DNA of 24,779 bases from a virus. Shown piece after piece: positions 55 to 24,727 of the stretch; the stretch's first letter is position 1; every line of letters starts with the position of its first letter. The stretch lies in UHGV virus genome UHGV-0038615. One strand, 5' to 3'. The position numbers were made by a program, and so were the translations under genes. The notes under the pieces are model-generated. The model saw only the letters and a list, made by a program, of their open reading frames with translations. It ran no database searches and had not been told where the DNA came from.

Positions 55-76
55 AAAAAATAAGCCCGTGTAAGGG
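55..76. repeat. attL core: 22-bp direct repeat aaaaaataagcccgtgtaaggg
   Basis: Exact copy at 24706-24727; lies just downstream of the integrase 3' end; matches the P2 att core as I recall it (the right copy continues agatt, as in the remembered 27-bp core). Confidence 0.75.
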
Positions 77-160
77 CGTTTATATACCCTTACAACAGGG
101 GCTTTCAGCGGTGCAATGCGGGTTTGCGCGGCACGCAAGACCACTGAAAGCCATAATAAA

Positions 161-1174
161 CTACCCTACTGTGGACACTGTGTGGACACTCTGAGAGCCA
201 ACACCACCACGTAGAGGATTAAGCGTTATCGCGTCCTGTAGGTACTCAGGGGCGAAGTGCGCATATGTCATTGTCTGCTCAATTCTTGAATGCCCAAGTA
301 TTCTCTGAAGCGTGATAATGTTGCCTCCGTTTATCATAAAGTGCGTGGCGAAGCTGTGCCGCAATGCGTGCGTAGCCTGACCCGGTGGTAGGTCGGGTTT
401 CAGCTCCTTCATTAGCCGTCTGAACGCGGGATAGTTAGCATCAGTGAACAGATAGCCACGCTTACCCGTTGTGATCATTGTTGCCAGTTCCTCGGATATA
501 GGAACGGTTCGCGGCTTGTTGGTTTTTGTCTTAACGAAAGTGACGCGATTTTGAATGATATTTTCCGCTTTCAGTTTTGCTGCCTCACTCCATCTCGCGC
601 CGGTGCTAAGGCAAAGAATCGCAATTTTTTTATTATCACCGTCCACTTTTGACAGCAGAAGCGCGATCTCCTCTTGCGTCAGGTAGCCGGTTTCTGGCTT
701 ATCCTCTTTGAGTCTTTTAAGACCTCGGAAAGGATGCTCCCCGAAAAATAGCTCCGCATCTATCAACGCGGTAAACATCCCGCTAAGACACGTTAAATCA
801 CGATTTATACTCGATGGCTTGATGCCTTGAGAACGCCGCACAGTGCTGTATTGGCTTATCAATGACTTAGTAATCTGAAAGGCACAAGGGTCACTGGTTA
901 TCTTTGTGAACAACTCTAACTTGCCCAGGTAATCTCGGCCGTGAGTTTCATACTTGCCTTTCAGCTCCCACCAGATTTTTGTTAGCTCTGACAGATGCCG
1001 CTTATCTGTCGGTTTCGCCAACCATTCTTTGTTGTGATGGTTGTACTGGGTATGCTTCTCGAAAGCGATAGCTTCGCTTTTCTTGTCAAATTTCCTGCGG
1101 ATGCGCTTTCCGTTGCGCCCTGCAGGTCTAATGTCCACTTCATAACGACCATCATCGAGCTTTTTAACAGACAT
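161..1174 (-). CDS. int: Tyrosine recombinase / phage integrase (P2 Int-like), 337 aa; start taken at the internal Met of MSVKKLDDGRYEV
   Basis: Translation is near-collinear with P2 Int from memory (KKLDDGRYEVDIRP..., ...ATHALRHSFATHFMINGG...ILGH...YAHF); the catalytic R..H-x-x-R..Y residues of tyrosine recombinases are present. Confidence 0.9.
   Translation of the reverse strand: MSVKKLDDGRYEVDIRPAGRNGKRIRRKFDKKSEAIAFEKHTQYNHHNKEWLAKPTDKRHLSELTKIWWELKGKYETHGRDYLGKLELFTKITSDPCAFQITKSLISQYSTVRRSQGIKPSSINRDLTCLSGMFTALIDAELFFGEHPFRGLKRLKEDKPETGYLTQEEIALLLSKVDGDNKKIAILCLSTGARWSEAAKLKAENIIQNRVTFVKTKTNKPRTVPISEELATMITTGKRGYLFTDANYPAFRRLMKELKPDLPPGQATHALRHSFATHFMINGGNIITLQRILGHSRIEQTMTYAHFAPEYLQDAITLNPLRGGVGSQSVHTVSTVG
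170..190. promoter_or_regulatory. Tandem direct repeat tgtggacact x2, candidate integrase arm-type binding sites (P' arm)
   Basis: Two 10-bp copies at 170-179 and 181-190; a related tgtggacatt / tgtggtca cluster sits next to the right att core (24647-24667). Function is inferred, not demonstrated. Confidence 0.4.
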
Positions 1175-1270
1175 AAAGCCTCCCGATGATGTTACTGCGT
1201 ACTTCAATTTCCTGATTTAAATAACAAAAACTCACCGTGCATTTACTGCACAGATAAGCACCGTAAATGG

Positions 1271-1567
1271 TTAGCCAGTTTTCTGGTCTGAGTGGGGTGA
1301 CGTTGTTGTCTGCTGCCCAAAGTGCGCGAGAGCCGGTGCAATCTGCCCAGCTTCTGGTGATATCGTCTCAGTCATGAACCACATGGTATATTTTTTGAAC
1401 TGTGGATGATTCAAAATCTTCATCACTGCTTGTATGCCCATATCTTTTACTCCCTTCTCATAACTAGAAAGAGAGCTATACGGAACTCCAGTTAAGTCAC
1501 TGAATTCTTTTCTATTCATACGTTCCGACTCACGCATGATGGCCAGCTTCTCGTTGACGGGTATCAT
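1271..1567 (-). CDS. C: Immunity repressor C (P2 C-like), 98 aa from the internal Met MIPVNEK
   Basis: C-terminal half (PQFKKYTMWFMT...ISPEAGQIAPALAHFGQ...TSPHS.QKTG) closely resembles P2 C as recalled; divergent from cox across a short operator region. Confidence 0.8.
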   Translation of the reverse strand: MIPVNEKLAIMRESERMNRKEFSDLTGVPYSSLSSYEKGVKDMGIQAVMKILNHPQFKKYTMWFMTETISPEAGQIAPALAHFGQQTTTSPHSDQKTG

Positions 1568-1650
1568 CGTAATTAACACTCCACTATTGATAGAAAAACG
1601 ATAACGGAGTAGTCTTCGCTTCGTTACCGCAGATTTATGGCTCCAATATG

Positions 1651-1680
1651 GCAATTAAAAGCCATTAGGAGCAATTAAAA
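1651..1680. promoter_or_regulatory. Two 10-bp direct repeats gcaattaaaa (1651-1660, 1671-1680) in the C/cox intergenic region, candidate repressor operator half-sites flanking the early promoter
   Basis: Exact repeats 20 bp centre to centre, between the divergent C and cox starts; P2 C is known to bind direct repeats at Pe. Assignment is inferred. Confidence 0.4.
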
Positions 1681-1702
1681 CACTAACGAGGAATAGTCAC
1701 AA

Positions 1703-1978
1703 ATGAATAGGGTCATTGAGAGCGCGAGCGACGCGGTTCCGTATCAGGAGTTTGCGCGTCTTATTGGTAAAACCCCTGCTGCTGTCAAAGGGATGATTGA
1801 GAAAGGCAAACTACCGATAGTTGAGATGACTGATCCGCAGTCTACAAGTGGGAGAGCAGGGGAATACTGGGTATATCTGCCAGCATGGAACAAAGGCATG
1901 AAGATGGCCTATGACAGTCGCCCTAAAGAAATTCGGGATGGTTGGTTGATGTGGTTGGGATTAGGTGAACCAGCATAA
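1703..1978 (+). CDS. cox: Cox-like excisionase / early transcriptional regulator, 91 aa
   Basis: Translation (PYQEFA.LIGK...GKLP...MTDPQS.SGRAGEYWVYLPAWN...RPKEIRDGWLMWLGLGEP) matches P2 Cox over its length from memory. Confidence 0.85.
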   Translation: MNRVIESASDAVPYQEFARLIGKTPAAVKGMIEKGKLPIVEMTDPQSTSGRAGEYWVYLPAWNKGMKMAYDSRPKEIRDGWLMWLGLGEPA

Positions 1979-1988
1979 GGAGCCAGAA

Positions 1989-2159
1989 ATGAAAGAGCCA
2001 CGTTGTATAGCTCAGTTACTGCGTAACGAAAGTCCACGCCCGATGAAGTTCAACATCACTCATGGTAAAGGGCGTAAAGGCATCATCATCCGCACTCGCA
2101 AGCCTGGATTTATTGCTATGGCTAAACGCTTTATGAAATCCCGAGGGATATCGTTATGA
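1989..2159 (+). CDS. Small hypothetical early-region protein (position of P2 orf78); start chosen at ATG 1989 after AAGGAG
   Basis: ORF between cox and B with a Shine-Dalgarno 6 nt upstream; basic 56-aa product; no recognised domain. Confidence 0.35.
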   Translation: MKEPRCIAQLLRNESPRPMKFNITHGKGRKGIIIRTRKPGFIAMAKRFMKSRGISL

Positions 2160-23309: not shown

Positions 23310-23316
23310 CAAACGA

Positions 23317-23343
23317 GAAAGCCCCGCGAATGCGGGGCTTTTT
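23317..23343 (+). terminator. Rho-independent terminator after ogr (agccccgc-gaat-gcggggct then TTTT)
   Basis: GC-rich 8-bp stem, 4-nt loop, T-run; a near-identical copy is at 24613-24639. Confidence 0.65.
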
Positions 23344-23615
23344 GCAACTTTTAGATCAGTTATGTTAAGTACATTTCCGTCGGCAAAGTGCCAGGAGCGG
23401 GTTCTAGAGAGTGACTAACGTTAGTTATATGTGTAAAATTCCTTAAAAATAAGAAGGATATATATCCATGACAGCAATTGCATATTGGATTAACTGAGAA
23501 TCAATTGAGAAATTTTTGGGGGGGCAAAAAATAAACTAGCTAATTAAATTTTTATAAATAACGAATATAAGACTGCAAGCCATTTAACAAAAGTTTATAA
23601 ATAAAGGAGTCAGTT

Positions 23616-24467
23616 TTGAACAATATCCCCATATCTACTCAATGGACTTTAGACGCTACGGGTGAAGTTGGACGCTCATCAGTAAATTCTGTTTATATGA
23701 TTATATGTCCTGCGACAGGCTCGAAAGGATCTGGTTTTTTAATAGATAATGGGTTAATAGTAACGAACGAGCATGTTATCACTGGATGCTCTACAAATCA
23801 GATTTTCGCAATTTCAGCTTATGGACAGAAGATTCCAATTTCTCAAAAATGGATAGATTCTGATCGCGATTTAGCTGTGCTGAGACCTGCCATTACCCAG
23901 ACTGGTGGGCTAAGTATTGTTAAGGATAATGATCTTAAAGTTGGTGAATCAGTAACAACTTGGGGATACCCATTAGGATACAACGGTCCTGCACCGTTAC
24001 TATCCGTTGGTTATCTAGCAGGATTTAACTCATACCAAACCGCCAAGGGACAAAAAAAACATCTAGTGGTAAATGGGGCATTTAACTCAGGAAATTCTGG
24101 TGGAGCTCTTTTAAAAGCTTCAGATAATAAAGTAATAGGTATTGTAGTGAGTAAGCATGCTCCTATCAGTCAATACCATCAATCAGCTATTGAAGCTTTG
24201 TCTGAAAATATGAGTGGCGTCACCTATACCGCTACTAATGACGCTGGAGAAACTAAAAGTTTTGTAGAATCTCAAATTGTAGCAGAATTATTGATTCATA
24301 TGAGAAGTCTAACTCAAGTTATGATTGGAGAAGCAATTGCAGCAGAGGAATTACTTTCGATGCTTAGCGAAATTGACTTGAGTCCACCACAATCTATGTC
24401 AAGAAATGCCTTATGTCATTGCGGGAGTGGAAAACGCTTCAAAGAATGTCATGGAAAGATATCCTAG
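23616..24467 (+). CDS. Trypsin-like (S1/chymotrypsin-fold) serine protease with C-terminal SEC-C-type metal-binding motif, 283 aa; TTG start
   Basis: Catalytic triad candidates in canonical order: His in TNEHV, Asp in DRDLAVL, Ser in GNSGGAL; C-terminus CHCGSGKRFKECHGK; AAGGAG 7 nt upstream of TTG; AT-rich by eye. Confidence 0.7.
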   Translation: MNNIPISTQWTLDATGEVGRSSVNSVYMIICPATGSKGSGFLIDNGLIVTNEHVITGCSTNQIFAISAYGQKIPISQKWIDSDRDLAVLRPAITQTGGLSIVKDNDLKVGESVTTWGYPLGYNGPAPLLSVGYLAGFNSYQTAKGQKKHLVVNGAFNSGNSGGALLKASDNKVIGIVVSKHAPISQYHQSAIEALSENMSGVTYTATNDAGETKSFVESQIVAELLIHMRSLTQVMIGEAIAAEELLSMLSEIDLSPPQSMSRNALCHCGSGKRFKECHGKIS

Positions 24468-24612
24468 TAAGTACTTATATCAGTCTGATAATGGCTCTTC
24501 CAATACAAAAGACTTCACTTACTCTGCCGTCATCTCTGCTCCTCGCTTATTGCAGACGGTCAAAAGCTTACAAGCTGTTGACTAGATGTGTTCTTACATT
24601 GTCAGTTAAAAC

Positions 24613-24639
24613 AAAAGCCCCGCAAATGCGGGGCTTTTT
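24613..24639 (+). terminator. Rho-independent terminator, second copy of the ogr-type hairpin (agccccgc-aaat-gcggggct then TTTTT)
   Basis: Identical to 23317-23343 except one loop base; lies about 145 nt after the protease stop and just before the att arm. Confidence 0.6.
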
Positions 24640-24644
24640 GTATC

Positions 24645-24667
24645 GATGTGGTCAATGTGTGGACATT
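24645..24667. promoter_or_regulatory. tgtggtca / tgtggacatt cluster, candidate integrase arm-type sites (P arm)
   Basis: Same tgtgg(a/t)ca motif family as the 170-190 repeats at the other prophage end. Confidence 0.35.
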
Positions 24668-24705
24668 GATAGAAATAAATCCATTTATTTCAGTAAGTTA
24701 CATGC

Positions 24706-24727
24706 AAAAAATAAGCCCGTGTAAGGG
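24706..24727. repeat. attR core: 22-bp direct repeat aaaaaataagcccgtgtaaggg
   Basis: Exact copy of 55-76; here followed by agatt, completing the 27-bp P2-type core as I recall it. Confidence 0.75.

Follow-up and report, generated by a model that had tools for sequence, protein, structure and literature searches.

What becomes of a P2-like phage that has lost its head genes: does it travel with the help of an intact relative, is it kept by its host for what it encodes, or is it on its way to disappearance? The locus studied here, a stretch of 24,779 bp (hereafter the window), raises this question. It holds a P2-like (Peduovirus) prophage of Escherichia coli, flanked by yegR and yegQ. Both ends of the element carry the same 22-bp sequence, AAAAAATAAGCCCGTGTAAGGG, as a perfect direct repeat. 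It equals the attP core that AF063097 gives for P2, and the ends coincide exactly with the limits proposed in the initial annotation (55-24727). When all P2 proteins were compared with the window by tblastn, the matches were collinear from int through ogr, in the P2 gene order of early operon, late operons, and ogr (Table 1). The full P2 morphogenetic set (Q P O N M L X R S V W J I H G FI FII E T U D) is incomplete, and the element is a defective P2-like derivative, not a viable phage. We regard it as very probably a P2-like E. coli prophage in early decay and not an evolved satellite.

Table 1. Features of the P2-like element and their positions in the window.
Feature	Position	Strand	Remarks
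attL core	55..76	.	22-bp repeat, P2 attP core
int, tyrosine integrase	161..1174	-	337 aa, intact; 84% identity to P2 Int over 336 aa; Int_N and Phage_integrase domains
C, immunity repressor, P2 type	1271..1567	-	98 aa, intact; 60% identity to P2 C; identical in intact relative
cox, excisionase and Pc repressor	1703..1978	+	intact; 73% identity to P2 Cox
orf78-like gene	1989-2159	+	precedes B
B, replication, helicase loader	2156..2656	+	intact; 83% identity to P2 B
A, replication endonuclease	3229..5520	+	intact; 74% identity to P2 A over 759 aa
cos region	6474..6528	+	similar to P2 across the whole interval
Cargo 1a, ABC-type ATPase	6593..8149	+	AAA_15/AAA_21 and DUF3696 (Pfam, PADLOC)
Cargo 1b, partner	8152..9264	+	370 aa; predicted Toprim nuclease fold, OLD/AriB/GajA type
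Q, portal	9360..10367	-	intact ORF; 74% identity to P2 Q; operon promoter region pP deleted
P', large terminase remnant	10369..11658	-	residues 161-589; ATPase and nuclease domains kept
Deletion 1 junction (J1)	11657..11667	.	4047 bp gone
Lysis cassette	11799..13068	+	ORFs intact; pO region deleted
holin	11799-12020	+	
lysozyme	12004-12513	+	
lysB	12510-12935	+	
lysC	12823-13068	+	
R and S, tail completion	13031..13931	+	intact (tblastn)
Cargo 2	14245..15232	+	family unrecognised; S-V slot, where P2 has orf30
pV, late-promoter activator site	15563..15580	+	TGT-N12-ACA dyad upstream of V; P2 pV site at same position
V, W, J and I'	15664..17845	+	V, W, J intact; I' residues 1-97 only (Pfam, tblastn)
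Deletion 2 junction (J2)	17844..17845	.	3810 bp gone
FII, E/E', T, U, D, tail genes	17896..23007	+	ORFs intact (tblastn)
ogr, late-gene activator	23088..23309	+	intact; 73% identity to P2 Ogr (tblastn)
ogr terminator	23318-23344		second copy 24614-24640
Cargo 3, trypsin-like peptidase	23616..24467	+	C-terminal SEC-C motif; between the ogr terminator copies
attR core	24706..24727	.	22-bp repeat

Five complete E. coli genomes hold an intact prophage that is 99.96-100% identical to the window over all 24,779 bases (strain WP2-S18-ESBL-07, NZ_AP021944.1 1807210-1839844; CP101921, CP051219, CM171611, and CM142784). These siblings occupy the same yegR/yegQ site and carry the same three cargo islands, and the intact relative has every essential P2 gene. 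The window maps onto 32.6 kb of the intact sibling as three collinear pieces, and the 7,857 bases that only the sibling has correspond to two deletions (relative to the intact element of 32.5 kb), with about 2 bp of microhomology at each junction. Deletion 1 took residues 1-160 of P and the stretch between P and O (where P2 has pP/pO), together with O, N, M, L, and residues 1-15 of X; the products lost are the scaffold (O), the capsid (N), the small terminase (M), and the head-completion protein (L). Deletion 2 comprises residues 98-176 of I, H, G, the G-FI intergenic region (where P2 has pF), and FI, i.e., the end of the baseplate protein I, the fibre (H), its assembly protein (G), and the sheath (FI). 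Searches by tblastn with O, N, M, L, H, G, and FI gave no match in the window and found all of them in the intact relative, which bears out the early claim that capsid, scaffold, small terminase, sheath, and fibres are missing. That claim had overlooked the remnants of P, X, and I at the junctions; by Pfam and tblastn, P' is without the Terminase_5 N-domain, and its start codon and promoter are also missing.

Also overlooked were 17 further late genes, of which 15 are intact (holin, lysozyme, lysB, lysC, R, S, V, W, J, FII, E, E', T, U, and D) and two are the X and I remnants; the FII allele carries G109D. On the P2 map (AF063097), Q is transcribed from pP, and synteny with this map would place three of the four P2 late promoters (pP/pO and pF) within the deleted segments. 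Since the P-O and G-FI intergenic regions are gone, pV alone among the four Ogr-dependent late promoters would survive. No sigma-70-like promoter was found near J1. The ORFs for portal, lysis, and tail tube (Q, the lysis genes, and FII to D) would be orphaned and are probably silent. Judging from its gene content, the element would be incapable of making heads, packaging DNA, building a contractile tail, or adsorbing.

The lysogeny and early modules present a different picture. Between attL and 11270, the only difference between the window and the NZ_AP021944 prophage is at 3099-3100, so Int, C, Cox, B, A, cos, and Q are the same as in this apparently complete phage. Int is identical to WP_000111938.1, from intact prophages. 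A P2-type ori lies within A at about 5083-5120, where 38 nt around the annotated nick site are identical to P2. The cos region contains the 19-nt cohesive-end sequence GGCGAGGCGGGGTAAGCAT at 6503-6521, which matches P2 cos at 17 of 19 positions, and the cos block aligns with that of P4 over 66 bp at 86%. The earlier view, that the element is degraded and P2-like but has kept integration, immunity, replication, and cos intact, thus stands, with full-length Int, C, Cox, B, and A, and with att, ori, and cos matching P2. Because these modules are unchanged, self-repression was probably kept, and excision and replication would be possible in principle.

We propose that an otherwise complete 32.5-kb phage suffered two deletions by illegitimate recombination. 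These events would be very recent and rare, would not have altered the modules for lysogeny and early functions (att cores, int, C, cox, B, A/ori, cos, and ogr), and the element would since have been inherited vertically. Compared with the L002 and L003 prophages and polarised against L003, the window has three nonsynonymous changes of its own, one intergenic, and no synonymous one. One of these changes, at 3099-3100, is shared with sister contigs. A sister deletion (Del3), different from and larger than those of the window, joins window position 9913 to 18689 in GCA_009794275.1 and GCA_009794105.1; GCA_050595645.1 has the same 3099-3100 allele, yet its prophage is intact. Prophage decay has occurred more than once. 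No observation speaks against decay. Three different deletion forms all have a perfectly preserved early region, and selection for immunity or cargo, not chance, could be the reason.

This brings us to the cargo. The three islands are AT-rich, with a GC content of 0.30-0.37 (about 6500-9500, 14000-15500, and 23500-24500) where the backbone has 0.51-0.62, and they occupy known P2 hotspots (PMC9122126; PMC13586616): they are ordinary P2 accessory-gene hotspots. Cargo 1a matches AAA_15 (2e-27) and AAA_21 (7e-19) in Pfam, and NsnB (4e-55), PDC-M55A (7e-46), and AriA (3e-31) in PADLOC, and cargo 1b gives a weak match to PDC-M55B (2e-4). The AAA_15/AAA_21 ATPase by which AriA of PARIS is recognised is therefore present in cargo 1a, and the DUF4435 Pfam match by which AriB is recognised is absent from cargo 1b. 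An ATPase next to a predicted Toprim-fold protein, in a P2 defence hotspot, looks like a candidate defence system. Cargo 2 is broken into ORFs of 239 and 135 aa by a T8 tract at 14835-14842, a frameshift missed in the initial annotation; the five complete genomes carrying this cargo have T7 and a single ORF of 328 aa. The S-V slot of a 98.4%-identical relative is occupied by a DUF262 and HEPN pair.

The host might have kept a disarmed prophage for its candidate defence cargo and immunity, with selection favouring the loss of morphogenesis and protecting the cargo. Cargo 1 is defence-like, it lies in a P2 defence hotspot (PMC9122126), and it was kept in all three forms (intact, Del1+Del2, and Del3); defective P2 elements with conserved defence genes are also on record (PMC13586616). 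Cargo 3 is seen in the intact and Del1+Del2 forms, the Del3 sequence that was fetched ending before it. We nevertheless find such domestication unlikely. Only a handful of substitutions separate the window from its intact siblings, and this near-identity leaves almost no time for selection. When two deletions of the same sizes were placed at random, the early region and all cargo were spared in 20% of the trials, and the cargo alone in 31%. Cargo 2 is frameshifted in the window and entirely lost in Del3, and deleted forms are rare relative to intact ones. The suggestion that selection retained the three modules, all standard in intact siblings, is thus not upheld: they are present here because both deletions happened to miss them.

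Mobilisation by a helper is quite improbable. Here, a P2-like phage, co-resident or superinfecting, would provide capsid, terminase, sheath, and fibres to an element whose own Int and Cox excise it, whose A and B replicate it, and whose cos serves for its packaging, much like a nascent satellite. The att cores, int, cox, B, A, ori, and cos are intact and identical to those of the complete phage, ogr is intact, the cos block resembles those of both P2 and P4, and the deleted form has persisted, being present in at least two metagenome assemblies. One contig (L018, ENA ERZ28614948) carries J1, J2, and the T8 tract together at 100% identity; in the other assembly (ENA ERZ27287548), J1 is on contig L009, which differs from the window at three positions, all within the P' remnant, and J2 is on contig L004. 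Since the junctions recur in two independent metagenome assemblies, they are real, and the recurrence of the double-deleted form shows persistence or spread of a host clone. However, all these copies are at the one yegR/yegQ site (about 250 bp of flank are seen), and searches of IMG/VR and 5,426 complete E. coli genomes gave no evidence of horizontal spread through several sites or hosts or through virions. Neither J1 nor J2 occurs in these genomes, 52-54 of which hold the two flanks apart, nor in GTDB representatives, JGI metagenomes, or IMG/VR, and the latter yielded no attP-form contig. None of the P4 hijacking genes (sid, psu, epsilon, alpha, and cI) has a match in the window. About 17 late genes and remnants that would be useless to such an element are still there, and it is therefore not streamlined. 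Its repressor is of the P2 type and no LexA box was found anywhere in the window, so P2 biology would leave a helper without an evident route of derepression. Finally, the unit of 24,651 bp is 76% of the intact length (32,508 bp), and cos packaging is sensitive to length when the capsid has a fixed size (PMC6893505). One part of the proposal of a helper-dependent element survives, namely that the element still has every cis site and early gene needed to excise, replicate, and be packaged via cos, whereas positive evidence for mobilisation is nil: a single site, junctions unseen elsewhere, no attP contig, and no P4 genes. It is likewise improbable that we are seeing a satellite at birth, which a heteroimmune or sibling P2-like helper would excise, replicate, and package at low frequency. 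If true, the element would spread its defence cargo and offer a natural snapshot of how cos-type satellites can arise from the lineage of their own helper.

The absence of both junctions from every complete genome, and the mere 2 bp or so of microhomology, would also fit deletions produced by assembly or construction, but such an artefact is highly improbable given that an independent contig (L018) combines J1, J2, and the T8 tract and that a second assembly (L004 and L009) repeats the junctions in a form slightly diverged from the window. The chance that the element is a tailocin-like remnant using its P2-type tail as a bacteriocin, in the manner of R-type pyocins, is negligible: the head genes are gone and R, S, V, W, J, FII, E, T, U, and D are still present, but gene content refutes it, because the loss of the sheath FI, the fibre H, G, and the C-terminal part of I leaves no contractile, adsorbing tail.

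The element shares gene order, att core, cos (17/19), and ori (over 38 nt) with P2 (AF063097), and the proteins encoded by shared genes are 52-85% identical. It differs from P2 in that other cargo replaces old, tin, orf30, and fun(Z), that cargo 1 lies between cos and Q instead of between A and cos, that its holin and endolysin are non-homologous to those of P2, and that its morphogenetic genes are deleted. Cargo 1 sits in the hotspot where P2 carries old, and shares an AAA_15/21 ATPase and a predicted Toprim-fold partner with OLD-family nucleases, PARIS (AriA/AriB), GajA of Gabija, and the PADLOC candidate PDC-M55. Unlike OLD and GajA, it is made of two genes, and unlike AriB of PARIS, its partner has no DUF4435 match in Pfam.

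P4-like satellites have the conserved cos block in common with the element, together with an integrase and an Ogr/Delta-type activator, and the element, like them, would need a P2-like helper to make particles. When P4 proteins were searched in the window by tblastn, the only homology was that between delta and ogr, with no sid, psu, epsilon, alpha primase, or cI. We rejected a P4-like satellite: the element has no sid/psu/epsilon module and no alpha replicon, and it encodes the P2 A and B replication genes instead. It thus differs from P4 by its P2 A/B rolling-circle replicon, by being twice P4's size, and by its leftover tail and lysis genes. At the same locus, E. coli K-12 has ogrK/yegZ, which we take to be a P2 remnant; decay in the window is much less advanced. 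Defective P2-like prophages described previously (NAR 2026, PMC13586616) are likewise incomplete, keep accessory or defence genes nearly identical to their counterparts in intact phages, and raise the same question of domestication versus residual exchange. Relative to these cases too, the window represents a much earlier stage of decay, with two deletions only and with early genes and cis sites intact.

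A megablast of the window against 5,426 complete E. coli genomes matched its whole length (100% coverage, about 100% identity) as three collinear pieces over 32.6 kb. The prophage of NZ_AP021944, between yegR and yegQ, has every essential P2 gene, and base-level alignment resolved two deletions in the window. Perfect microhomology extends over only about 2 bp per junction, with imperfect similarity on the sides. Outside the deletions, the window differs from NZ_AP021944 at 3099-3100, 11271, 18221, 21868, and 23038, and by one extra T at 14835. Since 3099-3100 is the sole difference from the intact parent between attL and 11270, Int, C, Cox, B, A, the ori, cos, and Q exactly match their counterparts in a complete phage, and a search for inactivating point mutations in Int, A, or cos found none.

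The ORF listing, composition, and protein-by-protein comparison with phage P2 all describe a P2-like prophage, whose ends in the initial annotation coincide exactly with a 22-bp direct repeat. The pattern of gene presence and absence described there was confirmed as a whole: the protein comparison with P2 gave no match in the window for O, N, M, L, H, G, or FI. There are no tRNA genes in the window, and the three cargo regions have a GC content of 0.30-0.37 vs 0.51-0.62 for the backbone. The block around cos is similar to P2 (6474-6528) and to P4 (66 bp, 86%). Cargo 1 is located between cos and the portal gene Q, unlike old and tin of P2, which are found between A and cos. To the left of attL, the bacterial sequence is similar to that on the phage P-arm side of attR, and this attB flank may be what is left of an earlier P2-like prophage.

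Features of the element and of the two deletions (positions in the window)
Feature	Position	Description
22-bp perfect direct repeat	55-76 and 24706-24727	AAAAAATAAGCCCGTGTAAGGG; equals the P2 attP core
Gene order from attL, early part		int, C, cox, orf78-like, B, orf80- and orf83-like, A, DUF3850/ASCH gene
Gene order, next		cos, cargo 1 (two genes), Q, truncated P, truncated X, holin, lysozyme, lysB/lysC, R, S
Gene order, right part		cargo 2, V, W, J, truncated I, FII, E/E', T, U, D, ogr, cargo 3, attR
ori	about 5083-5120	38-nt stretch inside A, identical to P2 around the annotated ori nick
cos	6503-6521	GGCGAGGCGGGGTAAGCAT; 17/19 positions as in P2
Deletion 1	junction about 11658	4047 bp; lost: P residues 1-160, P-O intergenic region, O, N, M, L, X residues 1-15
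Deletion 2	junction 17844/17845	3810 bp; lost: I residues 98-176, H, G, G-FI intergenic region, FI
T8 tract in cargo 2	14835-14842	splits cargo 2 into 239-aa and 135-aa ORFs
pV dyad	15563	TGT-N12-ACA
ogr terminator hairpin, two copies	23318-23344 and 24614-24640	26/27 match, around cargo 3
Similar flanks	3-22 and 24638-24657	19/20

The junctions of deletion 1 (J1, GAGGATGTGGCGAATTACGGGCGCACTGAGG) and deletion 2 (J2, GAGCCGCTCGGGTACCTATCTGGCGAACCTG) are very rare. None of the 5,426 complete E. coli genomes has either one, although 52-54 of them contain both flanks separately, and exact-pattern scans of GTDB representative genomes, JGI metagenomes, and IMG/VR found neither. Carriers were found by exact-protein look-ups in ENA metagenome assemblies. 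One contig (L018, in ERZ28614948) has J1, J2, and the T8 tract together, with 100% identity to the window, and ERZ27287548 has J1 on one contig (L009) and J2 on another (L004). An assembly artefact was rejected on the grounds that these independent contigs bear both junctions. The chromosomal site is the same in all copies: L009 enters yegR, and L004 and L018 share the attR-side flank of the window. Between the window and L009 there are three differences (10938, 10956, and 11271), all inside the 1.3-kb remnant of P (P'), and none in the remaining 10.9 kb compared; this restriction to P' may reflect relaxed constraint or strain-mixture noise in metagenome assembly. The fusion ORF of truncated I and the 387-aa P' product had no exact-product record, the latter because the window has its own H-to-N change in P'. 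Given the independent contigs, the common site, and the near-identity, the deletions are biological events, both recent and rare, and so far as the data show they are passed on vertically.

Contigs with the window's allele at 3099-3100 served as the comparison set for this lineage. The prophage is intact in GCA_050595645.1. In GCA_009794275.1 and GCA_009794105.1, another deletion, again a single one, joins window position 9913 (mid-Q) to 18689 (in E); the sequences fetched for these two, which end within D, retain the stretch from int to A, cos, cargo 1, and the stretch from E' to D. Erosion in this prophage lineage follows more than one path, and the late region is lost first each time.

What the deletions imply for late expression can be read in part from the P2 map. 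In the P remnant, the Terminase_6N and 6C domains persist, and its Terminase_5 N-domain, start codon, and promoter are gone. The P-O intergenic region of P2 contains pP/pO, with pF upstream of FI, and both regions fall within the deleted segments. Neither the P-O nor the G-FI region of the intact relative has an exact TGT-N12-ACA dyad, so that the loss of pP/pO and pF is placed by synteny with P2; by this criterion, three of the four late promoters would have been removed. pV is the sole late promoter with a retained dyad, and no sigma-70-like promoter was found near junction 1. Given this apparent promoter loss, the portal gene, the lysis cassette, R, and S, though intact, are probably silent, and FII to D could be reached only through read-through from pV. 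We infer that the element cannot carry out head assembly, DNA cutting and packaging, sheath building, or adsorption.

The initial annotation had interpreted the window as a degraded P2-like element, a candidate for dependence on a helper, whose cargo seemed to have been kept by selection. The first part is borne out by the gene comparison, the intact parent, and the two deletions. Helper dependence is possible but unlikely: all the requirements for mobilisation on the element's own side are present, but the case against it consists of more than a lack of spread. The element still carries about 17 late genes and gene remnants that are of no use. A search for a LexA box, which would indicate 186-type SOS inducibility, gave no match in the window, and with a P2-type repressor this leaves no evident derepression route for a helper. 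The unit length, 24,651 bp, is 76% of the parent's 32,508 bp; packaging from cos into a fixed capsid is described as length-sensitive (PMC6893505), and a literature search on P2 packaging size limits gave just this kind of general statement on cos packaging. When IMG/VR was scanned for the attP junction as predicted (...GTTACATGC-AAAAAATAAGCCCGTGTAAGGG-CGTTTATATACC...), no contig in the attP form was found. A P4-like satellite is rejected, as the window has no P4-type hijacking genes, and so is a tailocin, as the sheath and fibres are gone.

Selection on the cargo is unsupported. When two deletions of these sizes were placed at random in the intact prophage, the early region and all cargo were spared in 20% of trials, and the cargo alone in 31%. 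The few substitutions show that almost no time has elapsed. Furthermore, cargo 2 is frameshifted in the window and lost in the sister deletion form.

All three cargo islands are present in intact siblings. Cargo 1 encodes an AAA_15/DUF3696 ATPase and an unannotated partner with a predicted Toprim fold, a pair that is a reasonable candidate for an OLD/PARIS-like defence system. Cargo 2, without a family assignment, fills the S-V slot, the place of orf30 in P2. Only five of the 5,426 complete genomes carry it, each in the T7 form with one 328-aa ORF. The T8 allele is common to at least 23 contigs, otherwise intact prophages among them, and therefore predates the deletions; the poly-T may act as an on/off switch through slippage, or the allele may be a common pseudogene form. 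In a 98.4%-identical intact relative (NZ_CP067250.1, 18620-20234), a DUF262 and HEPN gene pair replaces cargo 2, which indicates module swapping at the S-V slot. Cargo 3 encodes a trypsin-like peptidase (Trypsin_2 and SEC-C), and the doubled ogr terminator around it makes it look like a moron insertion just inside attR. Further P2 hotspots are described in a 2026 NAR study (PMC13586616).

The window is an early-stage defective prophage, a textbook case and one more instance of a familiar kind. Its interest is descriptive, since the first steps in the decay of a P2 prophage can be read base by base from three near-100% identical versions: the intact parent, the double-deleted form, and the sister form with a larger deletion. 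In these steps, deletions at microhomologies take structural genes and also, judged by P2 synteny, three of the four late promoters, and the lysogeny, replication, and accessory genes outlast them. Should a helper be shown to move the element, this would inform how cos-type satellites originate and how defence cargo outlives its phage, a question already posed for defective P2 elements, which are reported to have defence genes nearly identical to those of intact phages (PMC13586616).
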